Notes: generated from the sequence alone by a model not told the origin. A stretch of 64,000 nt of DNA from Syntrophales bacterium (GCA_963666365.2 CAXXNF010000001.1:64001-128000); one strand, 5' to 3'; positions 13,775 through 21,540 are shown, counted from the first letter of the stretch. Program-made: numbers and translations.

Positions 13775-15148
13775 CTAGTCCCGCTCGAAAGATATACCGT
13801 ACTTTTCGAGCTTTCTTTCGAAGGTTGGTCGTGAAATTCCAAGAATTTCACATAACTCCCCTTTGTTTTTGTCGGTTTCTCTCAGCACTTTCCGAATGTG
13901 CATCTCCTCGACCTCGTCAAGAGTCATGAACCGTCCCGATTCCGTCCGGCCGCTTGTGCGGGGTTCACTTAGCCCCCCCTCTTTTTCTCGGAGAAGTTCA
14001 GGAAAATCACCCTTTCCCAATATTTGGCTCTTTGCGACCACCACGGCGCGCACCAGCAGATTCTCGAGCTCTCTGATATTGCCCGGCCAGCTGTAGTTGA
14101 GAAATACCTCCATCATTTCATCGGAAATGCCTGCAACTCGCTTATGGAGATCCATATTGATCTTCGTTAACAGATAGTCGACAAGATGAGAAATATCTTC
14201 ACGCCGCTCCCTCAGGGGCGGTATTTTTACAGTAACAATATTAAGGCGGTAATAGAGATCGTCTCTGAACTTTCCCTCCTTCACCATCTCCTCGAGATCT
14301 CTATTGGTTGCCGCAATCACCCGGGCATTCAGTTTGACACGATCTTTTCCACCCACCCGCTCGAATTCGCGCTCCTGCAAGACGCGAAGCAACTTAGCCT
14401 GAAGATTGACCGACATCTCGCTGATTTCATCCAAAAATACGGTCCCGAATCTTCCAAGTTCGAATTTGCCCTGTTTTCTGGCGATGGCGCCGGTAAAAGA
14501 GCCTTTTTCGTGCCCGAAGAGTTCCGATTCGAGCAATGTTTCCACGATTGCGGAACAGTTAACGGCGATGTATGGCTCATCGCGGGAGGTATTGTGATGG
14601 ATCACCTTTGCAATCAATTCCTTTCCTGTACCGCTTTCACCCTGAATCAACACCGTCGCCCGGTTCTGGGACACCACGCCGATCGTTTTAAAAATTTCCC
14701 TCATTCGATCGCCGTTGCCGATAATATCTCCCAGCTTGAAGTCTCTGGCAGGTTCCATGAGCAGGCTGTCGATTTTTCTTTCCATTTCGACGGTCTTCAA
14801 GGCTTTTTTTATGGCGATGTCCAGTTCATCTATATTGATCGGCTTATGAATATAATCGAAGGCGCCCAACTTCATGGCATTGATAGTGGTTTCCATGTCA
14901 TGGTGGGCGGTAATCATAATGACCTTGGCGTTCTCATTCTCCTCCTTTAAATCTTCAAGCACGGTAAACCCGTCAATATCGGGGAGCCGTATGTCCAGCA
15001 CCACCACATCAGGCAGCCGCTCTACATACCGGTTCAATCCCTCGGTCCCGGTGGAGGCGACAGACACATCGTACCCTTCTTCCGACAGATAGAGCTCCAG
15101 TGACTCGCGAATCGATTTATCATCATCAATAACAAGAATTTTCGCCAT
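13775..15148 (-). CDS. sigma-54-dependent response regulator (NtrC/AtoC family)
   Basis: Receiver domain (LDIRLPD), GESGTGKE, ESELFGHEKGSFTGA, WPGNIREL, Fis-type HTH. Confidence 0.95.
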   Translation of the reverse strand: MAKILVIDDDKSIRESLELYLSEEGYDVSVASTGTEGLNRYVERLPDVVVLDIRLPDIDGFTVLEDLKEENENAKVIMITAHHDMETTINAMKLGAFDYIHKPINIDELDIAIKKALKTVEMERKIDSLLMEPARDFKLGDIIGNGDRMREIFKTIGVVSQNRATVLIQGESGTGKELIAKVIHHNTSRDEPYIAVNCSAIVETLLESELFGHEKGSFTGAIARKQGKFELGRFGTVFLDEISEMSVNLQAKLLRVLQEREFERVGGKDRVKLNARVIAATNRDLEEMVKEGKFRDDLYYRLNIVTVKIPPLRERREDISHLVDYLLTKINMDLHKRVAGISDEMMEVFLNYSWPGNIRELENLLVRAVVVAKSQILGKGDFPELLREKEGGLSEPRTSGRTESGRFMTLDEVEEMHIRKVLRETDKNKGELCEILGISRPTFERKLEKYGISFERD

Positions 15149-15151
15149 AGT

Positions 15152-17827
15152 TTAATCCTTGGGAACAGTGAAAGCGGCGCCGGCATCTCCGTCGCTCCTC
15201 AGTTCTTGTCGACTCTCGGAGTAGGGGAAGGTCACAACAACCTTCGTGCCCTGCGATTTAACACTGAGAATCTCTATGCTTCCCTGATGAAGATCTACGA
15301 TCTTCTTTACCTGCGCAAGTCCCAGTCCGGTACCGTACTGCTTTTTTGTGAAGAAGGGGTTGTAAATTGACGGCATGTCCTCCTCGTCGATGCCGCATCC
15401 ATTATCCACTATTTCCACGGTCAGTGAGTGTGGGTCGTCATCGTTCAGACGGGTTGACAGGGTAAGCTCGCCCCCTTCGCCCATGGCATCAACGGCATTA
15501 TAAATAATGTTCAAAAATGCCTGCGCCAGAAGTGCTGGATCTACAACGATGGGCGATAATTTTTTCTCATAGCGCTTTCGAATTAAAATTTTCTTGTCTA
15601 AGAGCACCATATCAGCCATATGGAGGGCGTGGTCAAGAATCGCCTCGATCTCGGAGAACTCCTTTTGTGGATCATCAGGCTTGGCATAGATCAAGACGTC
15701 ACTGACGAGCTTCTCCAGGTGCCCCACCTCCCGTGCCGCTATTTTAAAACGTTTCAGATCGTTTCCGCCGGGCGTCATCCGCTTCTCCAGAATTTGAAGA
15801 CTCATTTTTATTGATGACAGGGCGTTCCTCAATTCATGGGCGATCCCCGCGGAGAGCTGCCCGAGGGCGGCAAGCTTTTCATTCTCAAAACTTTTTTTCT
15901 CCAGCTTCTTCAAAGCCGTGATATCCTGCTGAACAAGAATGATTCGGTCGGAACCGGGAACGGGACGCGGGGTAATGAGGAGATCTCTCTTTGACCCGTC
16001 GCGGGCAAGAGCTCTTATCTCGTAGGGGGTGAAGTCGCCCTGTTTCCCGTCTTCCCACTTTTGAAGCACGAATTCCCTGTTTTCGGGATCGACAAAATCG
16101 GCAAAATGCTTCCCCTTCAGTTGAGGTATTCCCGATACGCCTTCACGTTTGATATTATCCCGGCTCACATAATTAATGACGCCTTCGCTGCTCAGATCGT
16201 AGACCTTCTCCGGCATCGTATCTATTATGGACTGCAGATAATTATAGAGTTCCTCGATTTCCTTTCTCAACCGGATATTCTCATCAAGCTCGTTCTGGAG
16301 AGTCTCTGCATATTCCTTGAGACTCAGCTCCATTTCTTTTTCTTTGGTTATGTCCTGAAGAGTTTCTATCGCAGCGGTAATGCTGCCGTTTTCGTCGTAA
16401 ATCGGCGCCGCGAGAAAATAGAGATACCGTTCTTTGCCTCCAAGGTTCTCATAATGATCGAATGCTTCAAAGGCGCCTTCCACCCGGTCTGATTTTTTCA
16501 CCTCCTTTGTCCCGTAATAGTGTTCGAGAATTTCAAAACTCTGATCAATAATGATATCGGCAACCAGGGGGCGTGCATCCTTGTAAAGAGGCATGTAGTG
16601 CTTGTTCGTCCCGATCATCTCCGCGGCCGTGTACCCTGTCAGATCGGCGCAGGCCTTGTTCCATAGAATTACCCTGTGATTCGTATCGATCACCATGGTG
16701 GGGATCGGTGAGCCTTCAATAATGCCCTCGATGGTTTTGTGCTCCCGGATAAGCCGTCCCTGCCACTCTTCCCGCTCTTTGAGGCGCTTCAGTTCTTCCT
16801 CAGCCCTCAGTTGTCTGGTGGCGACAAAGCCGATTACAAAGGCAGCGGCTATCACGATTATGATAAGCCCCATGGCGCCCGCCATTATATTAATAAACGC
16901 CTTACGCATGAGATCTATCACTCTTCCATAGGGGGTCACAAGGACAAGGGTCCATCGATCACCCTTGACGTGCACGGGGGCATAAGCCACGATCTGCTTC
17001 TCCTCATTTCCCATGGCATCGCGGATCAACCACTGATCGTATCCGGCATTTCCTTTCAGAAAAACCTCTCTGAGTTGAGAGACCGCCGCATTTCCTCCCG
17101 TTACGAGGACGCTCACGTCCATGCCGATCAAATAGGGGTTGGAATGCGCCATGAAGGTTCCCCCCTTTTCGATAAGCCAGCTGTCGGTAAATTCACGGCG
17201 GCTCAGTGGACCTGCATAGCGGTCTATCACTGCGTCAAGCAAGAGAAAGGCTATCACTGATCCTGTATACTGCTTGTGATGATTATATTTAGGGACGGGT
17301 ACCGCTATTGCCGATTCGGTGGCACTCATGCAGTTCGACCCCAGAGGCAGACGAATCAGCGGCGTGACCGTCGATTCCGGCAGAAGGCCGGCTTCTCCCA
17401 AGGCGGTCTGCCATGCATCGAAACAGGCTTTTGTTTTTACCTTCTTTTCCGGCCAGAGGAATACCAGTTCTCCCGCTGAATTGGTCATTCCAATAAGGCG
17501 CACCTGATGACCCACATTGTCATAAAGGAGCTTCAGAAGTTCCTTTGTCTTCTCCACATCGTAGTTTTCCCTTTCCGCAATATTGACAAAGGCGGAAAGG
17601 TTTTCTCTCGCTCCGTCAATCAGATCCTCGATACCTGCGGCCGCGGCATTTGCTATCGCCACATGCTGGTCTCCGAATTGCCTTGCGATGTCTTTTTCCC
17701 TGGCATGATTCACCGTCAATGCCAAAAGGAGAATAAGAATGATCAGCGACGCCGTTGCCAACCAGACGGAAATATTCATATCAAGTCTGAAAGTCCGCCT
17801 TTTTTTTTCTCTGTCTCTCGCATTCAT
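15152..17827 (-). CDS. membrane sensor histidine kinase (Cache-PAS-PAS-HisKA-HATPase)
   Basis: Two TMs flanking a periplasmic domain; PAS motifs; AHELRN H-box; DNGCGI, FFT and GTGLGL boxes. Confidence 0.93.
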   Translation of the reverse strand: MNARDREKKRRTFRLDMNISVWLATASLIILILLLALTVNHAREKDIARQFGDQHVAIANAAAAGIEDLIDGARENLSAFVNIAERENYDVEKTKELLKLLYDNVGHQVRLIGMTNSAGELVFLWPEKKVKTKACFDAWQTALGEAGLLPESTVTPLIRLPLGSNCMSATESAIAVPVPKYNHHKQYTGSVIAFLLLDAVIDRYAGPLSRREFTDSWLIEKGGTFMAHSNPYLIGMDVSVLVTGGNAAVSQLREVFLKGNAGYDQWLIRDAMGNEEKQIVAYAPVHVKGDRWTLVLVTPYGRVIDLMRKAFINIMAGAMGLIIIVIAAAFVIGFVATRQLRAEEELKRLKEREEWQGRLIREHKTIEGIIEGSPIPTMVIDTNHRVILWNKACADLTGYTAAEMIGTNKHYMPLYKDARPLVADIIIDQSFEILEHYYGTKEVKKSDRVEGAFEAFDHYENLGGKERYLYFLAAPIYDENGSITAAIETLQDITKEKEMELSLKEYAETLQNELDENIRLRKEIEELYNYLQSIIDTMPEKVYDLSSEGVINYVSRDNIKREGVSGIPQLKGKHFADFVDPENREFVLQKWEDGKQGDFTPYEIRALARDGSKRDLLITPRPVPGSDRIILVQQDITALKKLEKKSFENEKLAALGQLSAGIAHELRNALSSIKMSLQILEKRMTPGGNDLKRFKIAAREVGHLEKLVSDVLIYAKPDDPQKEFSEIEAILDHALHMADMVLLDKKILIRKRYEKKLSPIVVDPALLAQAFLNIIYNAVDAMGEGGELTLSTRLNDDDPHSLTVEIVDNGCGIDEEDMPSIYNPFFTKKQYGTGLGLAQVKKIVDLHQGSIEILSVKSQGTKVVVTFPYSESRQELRSDGDAGAAFTVPKD

Positions 17828-18185
17828 GCCTATGGGGCCTATGGAAATACCTTTTAATTTTATGGGGGACCTACGCTTTTTCAGTCAGAGTCTTCTTCAT
17901 CTTCCTCATGACGCGACTTGATTGCAATAAATACATACACCCCCACTGCGGCGCCAAGGGAAATGAGCAGCGTTGCAAGCCCGCTTTCAATGCCCAGCAC
18001 CCACTTACAAAGGAGCCATGCCACAAGATATGTTACCAAAGTCAAGATTTCCTGCATGCCACACCCTCGCTCACGTTGTCACAAGACCATGTAGAGATTT
18101 TCATAAGGGGCTTGCTTCATCCTCAATGCACTGACGGACCTTATCCGGATCGCCACGATTCCAACCGAGTACTTCTCAAATAGCG

Positions 18186-18209
18186 CAACCCGTCATTATT
18201 GACGGGTTG
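18186..18209. promoter_or_regulatory. perfect palindrome, candidate enhancer (activator binding site)
   Basis: CAACCCGTCA-TTAT-TGACGGGTTG about 190 bp upstream of the sigma-54 -24 box. Confidence 0.45.
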
Positions 18210-18399
18210 ATACTACAGGCGACGCAGGTTATTTTCAATAAAATTATCCATTCTACTTTTCGTTCAATGCAATGAGTCAATTTAAAAAAACGTTCAACGA
18301 AAGCATGCAGAACCATCCTTATGGAGGCGCCAATCAAAAGCGCCATAGTCTCTTTTAATACGAATGGTTGCATAGCAATGGCTTCTTGCTGCTTCACAA

Positions 18400-18415
18400 T
18401 GGCACGGCTATTGCT
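18400..18415 (+). promoter_or_regulatory. sigma-54 (-24/-12) promoter
   Basis: TGGCACGGCTATTGCT matches TGGCACG-N4-TTGCW with GG-N10-GC spacing; about 100 bp upstream of atpE. Confidence 0.85.
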
Positions 18416-18516
18416 GAACTGCAGATACATTGAAAATATCATTTTCATAATAAAAGGATTTATTGTACAAGGGTGTACAAATGAATGGAGAAAGAAGAAT
18501 GAAAGGAGTCTCAACA

Positions 18517-18894
18517 ATGAAAAGGAAGTCAAGAAAACTGCTCTTCGGATTACTGGCAGCAATAGTGATCCTCATGGCGACATCGCCTGTTGCCCTTGCC
18601 GCTGATGCAATTCCGGCGGAAGGCGCCCCGTTAATGAAGGTAATCTTTTCCGTCGGAGCTATGATAGCGGCAGGTATCGCCATTGGGTGCGGAACCATCG
18701 GCGCCGGTGCCGGTATCGGTAATGCGGCAAACGGCGCCTGCGGCGCGGTAGGTAGAAACCCCGGCGTCCAGGGAAAAATCCTCATGACCATGCTGGTTGG
18801 TATGGCCATGGCCGAGTCCATCGCGATTTACGCCCTCGTCGTTTCGTTGGTTCTTTTGTATGCGAATCCCTACAAGAGTTTCCTTTTTGGCTAG
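18517..18894 (+). CDS. atpE: F0F1 ATP synthase subunit c, stand-alone, with N-terminal signal-peptide-like extension
   Basis: GxGxGxG motif, loop RNP, AESIAIY catalytic Glu; AAGGAG RBS. Confidence 0.92.
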   Translation: MKRKSRKLLFGLLAAIVILMATSPVALAADAIPAEGAPLMKVIFSVGAMIAAGIAIGCGTIGAGAGIGNAANGACGAVGRNPGVQGKILMTMLVGMAMAESIAIYALVVSLVLLYANPYKSFLFG

Positions 18895-18948
18895 AGAAAA
18901 AAATCTGAATTATAAACGCCAAAAAAATAAACTTAGGGGGAGAATACA

Positions 18949-20250
18949 ATGACAGAAACGAAAAAAGGTAAGCAGCTTTTTACTGTATCACGGTTGTTCT
19001 TCCTGCTTATCGTCATCCCCTTGCTATTAATGGCTTTTCTCATCGCCAACGGTATATTTCAATTAGGGGACACATCAAAGAAAGGCGCCATATCGGCTCT
19101 TGATGAGAAATTCCAGCAGGAACTGCTGGCCCGCGCCATATCCGTGTCGGACAGTGTTGCCGATTTCCTGAGGCAGATCGAGAAGGATACGCTGGTTGCC
19201 ACAATCCTTCCGGTCAACGAAGAGACGTACATTGACTTTGTCGAGAAAAACAAGCAAGGTCTCTGGGTGAAAAAGGACGGCACTATTGCGAAGGTTATGA
19301 AACCGCTCTACACAGAAATGGCCTATATCGACAGTAACGGCAACGAGATTGTCAAAATTGTCGATGGGCACGCGGTACCCAAAGCCGAGCTGGCAAACGT
19401 CAGCGACCCGGCACGCACCACTTACAAAAGTGAGGATTATTTCGAAAAGGCGAAAAATCTTAACAAGGCCCAGGTATACATGTCACATGTGATGGGCTGG
19501 TACGTCGATAAATCCGCCTTCGAAAAAGGTGAGCGATTTATGGGTATCATCAGGCTGGCAACACCTCTCTTTGACAAGCAGGGGTTCGCGGGAGTTATCA
19601 CTCTCGCCCTTGATGTGCAACACTTGGCAAAATTTACGGATAACATTATTCCGACTGAACCCGGATACGTTCTTGAAGCTGACGTATCCACGGGAAACTA
19701 CGCCTATATGGTTGATAACAGAGGGTTCGTCATCTCACATCCTGTGGACTCTCACATAGCCGGTCTTTATCCTGACGGTACCCCGGTACCTGCAGTTACG
19801 GAAAAAACGATCAGCGAGATGTCCAAGAAGGGTCAGGAGGTACTCAATCTCAACCTACTGGGCGCCATTGATCCCGAGCTGCCGGCGGTCGCCCAAGACG
19901 CGGCCAAGGGAAATTCGGGTGTCAAATCATACAAATTCGGCGGACACACCAAGATTGTGGCCTACTCTCCGATCAATTACTATTCAACGGTTTATCCTGA
20001 ACCTGCCGGTTTCGGCTGGGTCGGACTCGGCATAGACGTAGATAAATTCAACGAGATGGCCATGAAAGCTTCCGAGAAGATAGAGAAAGAAACACGGGCA
20101 TGGACGACAACGGTGGTACTCATTATCATCATATCCATCATTCTGCTCTTCTTCATTGCATCAATACTGGCACGGGGCGTTGGTCGTTCGATTGAAGCCG
20201 AAGTCCCGGAGGATGCTCTGGAACCACCGGGCTATGACGACGAAGATTAA
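18949..20250 (+). CDS. membrane-anchored Cache-domain protein without a cytoplasmic output domain
   Basis: TM, extracytoplasmic region with YAYMVDNRGFVISHP Cache motif, TM, short acidic tail. Confidence 0.8.
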   Translation: MTETKKGKQLFTVSRLFFLLIVIPLLLMAFLIANGIFQLGDTSKKGAISALDEKFQQELLARAISVSDSVADFLRQIEKDTLVATILPVNEETYIDFVEKNKQGLWVKKDGTIAKVMKPLYTEMAYIDSNGNEIVKIVDGHAVPKAELANVSDPARTTYKSEDYFEKAKNLNKAQVYMSHVMGWYVDKSAFEKGERFMGIIRLATPLFDKQGFAGVITLALDVQHLAKFTDNIIPTEPGYVLEADVSTGNYAYMVDNRGFVISHPVDSHIAGLYPDGTPVPAVTEKTISEMSKKGQEVLNLNLLGAIDPELPAVAQDAAKGNSGVKSYKFGGHTKIVAYSPINYYSTVYPEPAGFGWVGLGIDVDKFNEMAMKASEKIEKETRAWTTTVVLIIIISIILLFFIASILARGVGRSIEAEVPEDALEPPGYDDED

Positions 20251-20273
20251 CAACTGTTAACATCAGACGTCAC

Positions 20274-20311
20274 AGAGAGGCCGAACGCCGTAACGTTCGG
20301 CCTCTCTTTTT
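20274..20311 (+). terminator. intrinsic terminator
   Basis: AGAGAGGCCGAACG-6nt-CGTTCGGCCTCTCT followed by a T run. Confidence 0.9.
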
Positions 20312-20472
20312 ATTTAAAAGAGCAACAACCTTCCCTTGTCTTCGTTCTTCGGTCTATACTCCGATATTTTTTCACCACGGCCTCAAATATCTGGACTTGG
20401 GGACGATATATGTAGTATCCCCCGGAAGGGTTCTCCACGAATGGTGCTATTAAAAAATCAAAAGGTGTCCTC

Positions 20473-21540
20473 ATGAACGGCAATCTCCTGTTCCGGGCAG
20501 GGAAAAAAGCCATGGAAAAGATACGCAGCAAAGGTCTTTCTCCTGATATGGTCAAAGTCATCGCGGGTGCAGCCGGGGGACCCAAATATCTTGTCCTGAC
20601 ACAGCTTGACCGTGAAATTTTCTCCACCTGGCTCGCAACGAGGAAACAACCGCTCTTTCTCGTCGGATCATCAATCGGCGCCTGGCGCTTTGCCGCGATT
20701 GCCCAGCGCGATCCGCTCAAGGCTCTTGAAACATTTGAAGCAAATTATATTCATCAGCACTATCGCACACAGCCCAGCGCCGAAGACATTACTCGTGAAA
20801 GTATTCGAATTCTTTCTACCTTCCTGACTGACAAGGGTGCGCAGGAAATACTGTCCCACCCCTTTCTCAGGCTTTCCATCCTTGCGGTGAAGGCACGATG
20901 GCCCCTTTCCAGCGATAACAAGATGTTGCTTATTCCGGGGATCATCATGTCGGCCCTGGCCAATATGCTGAACAGAAAACTTCTCAAAATCTTTTTCAGG
21001 CGCGTGCTTTTCTACGATTCGAGAGAACCGCCCCCCTTCCTGCACATGTCCGATTTCCCCATCCACAGGATACCATTGACTGTCCACAACCTGAAACAGG
21101 CCGTAATTGCCTCGGGTTCGATTCCCCTGGTAATGAAGGGAGTACACAACATACCCGGCGCTCCCCCGGGCATGTATCGGGACGGCGGCGTCATCGATTA
21201 CCATGTAGACATCCCCTTTTTTAAAGACAATGACGATGGAATCGTCCTCTACCCCCACTACAGTGGAAGAATCACCCCGGGATGGTTTGACAAAAAAATT
21301 ACCTGGAGGAGTCCATCATACATGGATGATGTACTGCTTGTATGTCCCTCAGATGAGTTCATCGGTAGGCTCCCCTATAGCAAAATACCCGAGCGGAACG
21401 ATTTTTATCTTTTCAAAGGTCGCGATTCCGACCGGATCGCCTACTGGAAAAAGGTCATCGACGAAAGCCGGCGGCTGGCCGATGAGTTTGCAGATATTGT
21501 GTATACGGGAAAGATTGGCGATGTCGTCAGGCAATGGTAA
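20473..21540 (+). CDS. patatin-like phospholipase family protein
   Basis: GAAGGPK, GSSIGAW, ASGSIP and DGG motifs. Confidence 0.85.
   Translation: MNGNLLFRAGKKAMEKIRSKGLSPDMVKVIAGAAGGPKYLVLTQLDREIFSTWLATRKQPLFLVGSSIGAWRFAAIAQRDPLKALETFEANYIHQHYRTQPSAEDITRESIRILSTFLTDKGAQEILSHPFLRLSILAVKARWPLSSDNKMLLIPGIIMSALANMLNRKLLKIFFRRVLFYDSREPPPFLHMSDFPIHRIPLTVHNLKQAVIASGSIPLVMKGVHNIPGAPPGMYRDGGVIDYHVDIPFFKDNDDGIVLYPHYSGRITPGWFDKKITWRSPSYMDDVLLVCPSDEFIGRLPYSKIPERNDFYLFKGRDSDRIAYWKKVIDESRRLADEFADIVYTGKIGDVVRQW

Follow-up and report, generated by a model that had tools for sequence, protein, structure and literature searches.

We describe here a locus in a stretch of 64,000 nucleotides (nt) of DNA from a Syntrophales bacterium (GCA_963666365.2 CAXXNF010000001.1:64001-128000), referred to in its whole length as the window, in which a gene for an F-type ATP synthase c-subunit paralog—which we have named c1—and a gene for an output-less double-Cache membrane protein stand behind a sigma-54 promoter, divergent from the genes of a two-component system. 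Read from the sequence, positions 13775-20317 comprise two divergent units, and the promoter, c gene, palindrome, Cache gene, terminator, kinase and activator are all located where the original prediction, made from the sequence alone, had placed them. A conserved gene for a protein of 58 amino acids (aa), which heads the kinase operon, had been overlooked. The features are as follows:

13775-15148, minus strand: NtrC-type response regulator/enhancer-binding protein, 457 aa, with REC, sigma-54 AAA+ and HTH_8 domains
15152-17827, minus strand: membrane sensor histidine kinase, 891 aa, with a weakly dCache-like periplasmic domain, two PAS domains, HisKA and HATPase
17881-18057, minus strand: 58-aa protein, the first to be encoded in the kinase operon, with a pair of hydrophobic helices and an acidic tail, from open reading frame (ORF) reading
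18186-18209, no strand: perfect palindrome with 10-bp arms and a 4-nt spacer, CAACCCGTCA-TTAT-TGACGGGTTG
18256-18303, plus strand: predicted upstream activating sequence, TTTCGTTCAA ... ACGTTCAA, conserved in relatives
18400-18415, plus strand: sigma-54 promoter TGGCACGGCTATTGCT, with -24 TGGCAC and -12 TTGCT
18517-18894, plus strand: c1, F-type c-subunit paralog, 125 aa, with a signal-peptide-like N-terminal extension and Pfam ATP-synt_C
18949-20250, plus strand: output-less double-Cache membrane protein, 433 aa, arranged as transmembrane (TM) helix, dCache domain, TM helix and an acidic tail of about 25 aa ending in DDED
20274-20317, plus strand: intrinsic terminator closing the c1-Cache operon, with a 14-pair stem (nine G-C) and a 6-nt loop at 20274-20307, followed by a T run

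The regulator matches the Pfam families Sigma54_activat (226 bits), Response_reg (109 bits) and HTH_8 (36 bits), and its translation contains the Walker A motif GESGTGKE and a GSFTGA loop of the GAFTGA type, as in members of the NtrC family; its top NCBIfam matches are AtoC, NtrC and ZraR, each under its own cut-off. The kinase is recognized by HATPase_c (86 bits), PAS_9 (60 bits) and HisKA (43 bits), with a weak dCache_1 match of 26.7 bits that stays under the 45-bit cut-off. For kinase and regulator together, the top NCBIfam families are AtoS/AtoC, NtrC and ZraS/ZraR, none of which reaches its cut-off. The 58-aa protein has no match in Pfam or NCBIfam, and its only counterparts in a protein atlas are Thermodesulfobacteriota clusters without a name. 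On the opposite strand, the c1 start codon follows 101 nt past the sigma-54 box and is preceded by a ribosome-binding site, GAAAGGAG. The c1 protein matches Pfam ATP-synt_C (PF00137) with 62.8 bits against a cut-off of 24. It is a lone c gene as predicted, with no atpB, atpF, atpH or atpA nearby and the F1 operon on the other contig. The Cache ORF begins 54 nt past the c1 stop codon, and the strong terminator expected after it was found as the 14-pair stem with its T run.

Conservation of this layout was assessed in a scan of one genome per species that returned 148 relatives, of which the best 80 loci with flanking sequence were used for the counts. A locus was taken as assessable for a c1 gene upstream of the Cache gene if it had at least 500 nt of upstream DNA, for the promoter box if at least 400 nt lay upstream of c1, and for kinase and regulator if at least 5.5 kb of upstream DNA was available. 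In 74 of 75 loci the gene immediately before the Cache gene is a c1 homolog; L026 is the exception. Some 90-135 nt upstream of c1, 64 of 72 loci have the strict sigma-54 box and four others a box that deviates at one position (68/72 together). Among the remaining four, L044 is masked by N and L031, L035 and L043 have no box, with L035 on direct reading carrying TGGTAC-N5-TTGCT. An enhancer half-site occurs 90-150 nt before the box in 66/72 loci, the divergent 58-aa gene has a homolog in 62/69 (tblastn), the divergent kinase is present in 48/53 and the divergent NtrC-type regulator in 47/53. Kinase and regulator are both missing in L021, L027, L031, L035 and L043, and L051 shows only a partial regulator match. 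The c1-Cache arrangement is far from chance, and the loss of box or gene linkage in relatives that would have spoken against the original prediction is clearly not what is seen across the order.

Orthologs of the Cache protein number in the hundreds, have the same length and share 57-94% identity; those that carry a name are labelled Syntrophales, Syntrophobacterales or Deltaproteobacteria. Of 151 genomes sampled from the order, 107 encode an ortholog (97/137 high-quality genomes, 41/58 genera), with whole families lacking it. Outside the order, a sample of 301 genomes of the phylum contained full-length orthologs in a single family, here designated f62.

Two variations on the module were seen among the relatives. 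The complete long-read genome G030 has a Cache ortholog with seven in-frame stops (L103:6650-8362; G030:C1:584613-586196), a stop in the signal-peptide region of c1 and its second F-type c gene (c2, see below) convergent just downstream, which reflects either a decaying module or sequencing errors. In the clade of G010 and G017 (13/80 loci; L099:1815-3456), the Cache gene is followed by genes for an acidic repeat protein, FlgT_N-like and GNA1162-like lipoproteins and a CDP-alcohol phosphatidyltransferase, four genes that are absent from the window.

The promoter at 18400-18415 is, as had been claimed, a consensus sigma-54 element: it is exact to TGGCAC-N5-TTGCW, with the characteristic spacing of the -24 GG and -12 GC. 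The pattern TGGCAY-N5-TTGCW has this one match in the 64-kb window against 0.11 expected from shuffles, and 15 matches in the 4.0-Mb genome, this box among them. Most of the others precede ORFs that resemble sigma-54 targets (ammonium transporter, pilin), as judged from N-terminal sequence, and rpoN is present (C2:821340-821816). Going by the position of the box, transcription is expected to start near 18425-18427. Upstream, the window has GTTCAA at 18262 and 18292, a spacing of 30 bp or roughly three turns of the helix; the two sites precede the -24 box by 138 and 108 nt. In a count of 7-mers over 65 intergenic regions of the relatives, CGTTCAA was present in 50 and ATTGAAC in 52. Relative to the box, these words keep constant positions near -135 and -105, frequently accompanied by an inverted TTGAAC near -116; the ribosome-binding site of c1 is likewise conserved (GAAAGGA in 58/65). 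Two such sites lying 60-220 nt before a consensus box occur once in the whole 4.0-Mb genome, and this unique combination of enhancer and box makes the two-component system look dedicated to the c1-Cache operon. Membrane kinase, NtrC-type activator, tandem sites, sigma-54 promoter and two-gene operon would thus very probably form one regulatory circuit, in which this regulator presumably activates the operon.

The palindrome at 18186-18209, which had been proposed as the site of the activator, is real and perfect and lies 191 nt upstream of the sigma-54 box. It was found in no other intergenic region shown, that of the same-genus locus L055 included, and for lack of conservation even there it is ruled out as the activator site; the conserved enhancer is the element at 18256-18303. 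A weak sigma-70-like site (9/12 matches) is located on the minus strand at 18238-18210, and the palindrome lies just downstream of its -10 and may therefore belong to the leader or operator of the kinase operon itself. Two further short palindromes, TGAAAATATCATTTTCA at 18431-18447 and TTGTACAAGGGTGTACAA at 18463-18480, are found in the predicted 5' leader of c1, and a clade of f62-like loci has a different hairpin of 9-10 bp at about -60 from the start codon, possibly a leader structure.

A profile built from 20 c1 sequences can be aligned to the solved c subunits 2wie, 4mjn and 1yce (Spirulina, chloroplast and Ilyobacter) without a single gap. G57, G59, G62, G64, G66, G68, R80-N81-P82 and E100 are invariant in 20/20 sequences; c1 thus has the glycine motif, the RNP loop and the helix-2 carboxylate of a c subunit, and has neither an equivalog-level score nor an atp-operon setting. 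It is one of three PF00137 matches in the genome, which was assembled into two contigs (4.0 Mb, 94% complete). The other two are a second F-type c gene at C1:1522215, named c2, and a V-type K subunit gene that belongs to a complete V/A-type operon of contig 2. The count of atpE paralogs called for by the original prediction therefore showed c1 to be a paralog and not the only atpE, with two F-type c genes beside the V-type K gene. In c1 and c2 52.8% of residues are identical, and both have a signal-peptide-like N-terminal extension.

The suggestion that c1 would alter the ion specificity of the rotor was not supported. We take the Ilyobacter-type Na+ site to consist of a helix-1 Gln or Glu and a helix-2 Glu, Ser and Thr, plus a Tyr. 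The helix-1 Gln position is Ile in c1 and Met in c2; both keep the helix-2 Glu, the Ser and the Tyr, and in both the Thr position is Ile. The Na+-binding motif is therefore incomplete in both proteins, which are alike at the ion site apart from Ile versus Met, and from these residues both would be expected to be proton-coupled. Differences are found elsewhere. In the outer helix, the one that faces the a subunit, c1 and c2 have the same consensus residue at 22 of 31 positions, versus only 13 of 28 in the inner helix, and group-specific residues cluster at 42-49, at 67 and at loop position 84. In the loop, c1 has RNPGVQ and c2 RNP(D/E)AQ. The pattern is only suggestive of c1 working with the same stator as c2 and packing or coupling to F1 differently, because outer helices are generally more conserved. 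A cysteine of the cytoplasmic loop, Cys75 (window 18739-18741, in NGAC), is present in at least 90% of the 20 c1 sequences, at a position where c2 has Ala, Thr or Ser.

In this genome c2 is flanked by an arfB-like gene with an RF-1 domain on one side and a hemL-like gene of the class-III aminotransferases on the other. Contig 2 carries the F1 operon, atpF'-F-H-A-G-D-C, which includes neither atpB nor atpE; its alpha, beta, gamma, delta and epsilon subunits all score above the NCBIfam cut-offs. A separate atpB-atpE locus, the other check proposed at the outset, was not found: c2 is an orphan too and atpB is not in the assembly, so the orphan state is normal for the lineage. The relatives have two loci. 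Locus A consists of arfB, c2, a divergent AsnC-like gene (read from sequence) and hemL, with atpZ-atpI-atpB 0-5 kb further along (all three confirmed by Pfam); locus B is the c1-Cache module. Synteny of c2 with hemL/arfB and atpZ-atpI-atpB was seen in nine relatives, G010, G031, G033, G036, G037, G038 and G040 among them; in others atpB stands next to the hemL contig. In G029 and G037 c2 is the sole F-type c gene, atpB is kept and the Cache gene is absent; G034, which also lacks the Cache gene, has a canonical adjacent atpB-c pair. The curated model TIGR01260 (cut-off 43.95) is passed by c2 at 46.4 and failed by c1 at 37.1, and the genome-wide box scan found no sigma-54 box upstream of c2. Its linkage to atpZ-atpI-atpB and its presence alone in genomes without the module give c2 the character of a housekeeping gene and c1 that of an accessory copy.

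Relationships among the c genes were examined in a quick maximum-likelihood tree of 68 distinct sequences and 88 columns with a midpoint root, after rows of more than 175 aa and duplicate cores had been dropped. Both c1 and c2 are far from the c genes of a second, atpB-adjacent pair that some relatives possess, which indicates that c1 and c2 arose by duplication within this lineage, in either direction. Between the two genomes of this genus the path along the tree is 0.03 for c1 and 0.32 for c2, making c1 the more conserved copy.

The Cache protein matches Pfam dCache_1 with 63.3 bits (cut-off 45). Only about 25 residues follow the second TM helix, and these include no cytoplasmic transmitter (HAMP, kinase, MCP or GGDEF). 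A structure model from a 33-sequence alignment reached a predicted local distance difference test score (pLDDT) of 83.5 in AlphaFold, against 47.4 from 12 close sequences. In a Foldseek search with this model the best match was 3lid_A (E 1.1e-11, probability 1.00), and 141 PDB chains matched at E <= 0.001, the top ones being dCache sensor domains of kinases and chemoreceptors; a profile sequence search of the PDB gave no match. Relatives at 30-51% identity are kinases or HAMP/GAF proteins. The closest relative bearing a transmitter is a 1143-aa PAS/GAF histidine kinase (L125:3770-7201), the sensor part of which is 50% identical to the Cache protein; its gene is found after genes for an Mrp/Nuo-type antiporter subunit and an SPFH protein and before one for a REC-PAS regulator. 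The conserved first helix of the Cache protein is shared with the closest kinase-fused homologs and is thus not specific to the Cache forms linked to c genes.

A survey of 50%-identity representatives of 423-438 aa that cover the whole query identified four output-less forms: P0141 (linked to c1, 59% identical), P0143 (a 39% paralog), P0165 (37%) and P0203 (32%). The P0143-type paralog, Cache2, is 37-39% identical to the module's own protein (Cache1) and about 434 aa long, and both end in a short cytoplasmic tail with DDED in place of a transmitter. Cache2 is present in all four sampled genomes of f62, each time 200-300 nt after a c2-like gene, and in these four genomes there is neither a two-component system nor a sigma-54 box near the pair. 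The pairing of a c gene with a Cache gene has therefore either survived duplication or arisen twice, independently of the regulators, and no other observation argues as strongly for a Cache protein that works on or with the c subunit. At two of the f62 loci (L132:7941-12383 and L134:8050-12471), the pair is followed by rnfA/E, rnfB, rnfC, rnfD and rnfG-like genes, identified by their N-terminal sequences, and preceded by genes for a PiT-like transporter and a protein with a GspE-N/MshEN-like start.

The most economical reading of the locus is a dedicated switch from signal to rotor with c1 as an inducible alternative rotor subunit, and taken as a whole statement we place it slightly on the probable side. 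The membrane kinase, co-transcribed with the 58-aa membrane protein, would phosphorylate the NtrC-type activator; the activator would bind the two GTTCAA-type sites, 30 bp apart and about 105-140 nt upstream of the sigma-54 promoter, and turn on the two-gene operon for c1 and the output-less double-Cache protein. Once induced, c1 would presumably enter the F1Fo rotor, replacing or mixing with a constitutive c2, while the Cache protein would act as an assembly or regulatory partner of the c subunit and not as an ordinary signalling sensor. Since it is the inner helix and cytoplasmic loop in which c1 and c2 differ, the change would most likely concern ring geometry or the coupling to F1; ion specificity is probably unchanged. 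A physiological motive may be found in Syntrophus aciditrophicus, for which one study describes a proton-motive force that is consumed in syntrophic growth and generated on crotonate (PMC8805022).

Several observations weigh against this reading. The two-component system is not adjacent in 5 of the 53 loci, and c2 of the Syntrophales has no Cache partner, from which it follows that such c subunits do not generally need one. Canonical c subunits carry an acidic residue after RNP, and its absence from the RNPG of c1 could weaken F1 binding. The best NCBIfam equivalog of c1, NF005608, gives 72.3 against a cut-off of 128, so that c1 stays below every equivalog cut-off. In one clade (G010, G017 and eight of the 80 loci), locus B comes right after atpB, with the two-component system convergent and in between and c1 on the atpB strand, which fits c1 as an original member of the operon. 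In the tree, c2 forms one clade (support 99) nested in a poorly resolved c1-like grade, and c1 could therefore be the older form. Finally, atpB is absent from the assembly by PF00119, TIGR01131 and tblastn with the atpB, atpI and atpZ of a relative, which leaves this genome, as assembled, without the a subunit of an intact Fo.

The missing atpB is probably an assembly gap. The gene was found in 35 of 41 genomes searched (this one, G000, and 40 relatives), and contig 1 breaks off 12 kb past hemL, on the side where relatives have atpZ-atpI-atpB. Both contigs start in the same tandem array of units of about 531 bp with 95-98% identity, in opposite orientation (G000:C1:1-3877 and C2:1-19569); the assembly thus breaks inside a repeat of at least 20 kb, and since the other two contig ends are unique, one gap remains. 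In addition, a repeat of about 350 bp has eight copies in the genome (e.g. C1:134604-134950 and C2:435016-435371) and is 76% identical to sequence flanking atpB in a same-genus genome (L094:112-460). This repeat, possibly a piece of a mobile element, could be the reason why atpZ-atpI-atpB is unassembled or rearranged. Contigs from four public runs were compared with the atpB-atpI-atpZ stretch of the same genus: a contig of 2084 nt, about 80% identical, was recovered in two runs of the likely source sample (depth 3.7 and 3.2), and one of 1234 nt, also about 80% identical, at depth 107 in a sediment run of independent origin, in which 94% of the window's words are present. These contigs are a hint of atpB in the organism and could belong to a co-occurring relative. 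A synteny search for atpB started from the gene that precedes atpZ in G033; its homolog in this genome has other neighbours.

Three other explanations have to be weighed. The Cache protein could be a feedback co-sensor of the kinase, like the periplasmic protein ZraP in ZraPSR, with no direct tie to the c subunit, which would be compatible with c1 as a rotor variant. The layout, with an extracytoplasmic protein in a divergent sigma-54 target operon, is that of zraP/zraSR, ZraS and ZraR are among the better NCBIfam matches, and the Cache protein amounts to a kinase sensor module without its transmitter, as its 50% identity to kinase-fused homologs illustrates. We nevertheless regard this as possible but unlikely: the Cache gene stays with c1 in the five loci without an adjacent two-component system, the c-Cache pair of f62 has no such system nearby, and no similarity was found between the periplasmic domain of the kinase and the Cache protein. 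It is more doubtful that c1 is the main rotor subunit, with the switch setting the amount of Fo and c2 specialised or a back-up. The nesting of c2 in the quick tree and the strong, conserved ribosome-binding site of c1 are in its favour, as is the order in G010 and G017 (atpZ-atpI-atpB, the two-component system on the opposite strand, c1-Cache), which resembles an atp operon split by an insertion. This order is limited to eight loci of one clade, however; it is c2 and not c1 that is linked to atpZ-atpI-atpB across seven families and that passes the curated c-subunit model, and the module-less G029 and G037 keep c2 and atpB.

It is similarly improbable that c1 and the Cache protein form a membrane complex of their own apart from ATP synthase, a scaffold or ion path in which the Cache protein senses a periplasmic ligand and which the two-component system switches: c1 and atpB are never neighbours in an ordinary operon arrangement, c1 goes together with the Cache gene (74/75), falls under the equivalog cut-offs and has lost the acidic residue after RNP, and the second c-Cache pair stands beside rnf and not atp genes, but c1 keeps hallmarks useful only to a rotor (the F1-facing RNP loop, the outer-helix Glu and an outer helix nearly as in c2), is more conserved than c2 within the genus, and has no gene for an ion-conducting partner in its operon.

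Within the rotor-switch reading, a more direct role of the Cache protein can be imagined, one to which we give little credence: its helices and DDED tail would dock on or in the c1 ring (in f62, the c2 ring), so that a periplasmic metabolite would directly control assembly or rotation of the ATP synthase, and the two-component system would only set when the sensor-equipped rotor is built. A complex prediction for the Cache protein with two mature c1 gave a score of 0.01 (mark 0.32), a result that speaks neither for nor against the putative contact between Cache protein and c subunit. The V-ATPase, with its accessory proteins embedded in the ring, would then have a bacterial counterpart, one whose head is a small-molecule sensor.

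Parts of the module have parallels in known systems. In the ZraPSR/AtoSC-type systems of Enterobacteria, a membrane kinase and an NtrC-family activator are divergent from one sigma-54 target operon. The locus shares with them the tandem activator sites about 100-140 nt upstream and a target operon that encodes an envelope protein. Unlike in those systems, the target is a c-subunit paralog with a double-Cache protein, and a 58-aa membrane protein heads the kinase operon; regulator and kinase also stay below the AtoC/AtoS and ZraR/ZraS cut-offs (486.8 vs. 714; 363.3 vs. 760). The best profile match of c1 is PDB 4bem, the mixed c ring of the Acetobacterium woodii Na+ F1Fo. Here as in A. woodii, more than one kind of F-type c is encoded in one genome and rotor composition can vary. 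The A. woodii c genes, which lie inside the atp operon, with one encoding a fused double hairpin, differ from those described here, where both copies are single hairpins outside an atp operon with signal-like extensions and c1 has a sigma-54 switch.

Mammalian ATP5MC1-3 isoforms differ mainly in their targeting peptides. As with eukaryotic isoforms, several differentially expressed c genes would feed one ATP synthase, whereas here the mature inner helix and loop differ and control lies with a bacterial two-component system; three c-subunit isoforms are described for Trypanosoma brucei in PMC3542316. With regard to the Cache protein, two membrane proteins of the V-ATPase, ATP6AP1/Ac45 and ATP6AP2, place their helices inside the c ring, and AtpI/UncI is an assembly factor of the c ring. 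Like all three, the Cache protein would be a membrane protein acting on a proteolipid ring, and like the first two it has a large extracytoplasmic domain. It has no sequence relation to any of them, consists of a double-Cache fold with two helices and a DDED tail, and its contact with the ring is hypothetical.

The presence of a second F-type c in one genome also recalls N-ATPase operons. Relatives such as G001, G031 and G033 carry an adjacent atpB-c pair which we call N-ATPase-like by analogy only; it is a distant branch (stem length 2.5) with its own atpB, and c1 is not part of it. No atp gene adjoins c1, which is therefore outside any operon of the atpDCQRBEFAG type. This second pair was seen in several relatives, the same-genus genome among them (L102:8641-9554, L110, L114, L118), and was not found in the present genome.

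The ring of c subunits sets the number of ions moved per ATP and is usually taken as a species constant, and syntrophic degraders of fatty and aromatic acids live on fractions of an ATP. If the rotor-switch reading is true, a signal-controlled second rotor subunit would let syntrophs change gear ratio or enzyme coupling on demand, and the conservation of the module in syntrophic deltaproteobacteria would suggest that energy-starved anaerobes can rebuild their rotor on a signal. In the account given in PMC8805022, syntrophs alternate between spending membrane potential, in reverse electron transfer, and making it. The recurrent pairing of a c subunit with a transmitter-less Cache protein points to a partner of the proteolipid ring not described so far. 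With promoter, enhancer, regulator and both c genes identified, the idea of a switched rotor can be tested directly.

The original prediction knew of no system with this layout, and we likewise found no published description: a full-text literature search returned no paper in which sigma-54 is connected with both a Cache protein and a c subunit, and no account of the module. Supplements aside, a term look-up in the Desulfovibrio sigma-54 regulome (PMC4641369) gave no mention of ATP synthase, atpE or Cache, nor is there one in a 2025 paper on sigma-54 regulons across phyla (PMC12316311), and a 2026 comparative genomics study of Smithellaceae (PMC13685792) has none beyond a table of atpA-H presence.

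Two minor observations concern the downstream end of the locus. In an Rfam scan of 17800-20450, the sole match was the sub-threshold sau-63 (29 vs. 100 bits), which lies over the terminator and is taken as chance. After the terminator, the window has a gene for a patatin-like phospholipase at 20473-21540; a patatin-like gene (60% identity) is also found downstream of the module in the same-genus locus, and in none of the remaining loci.

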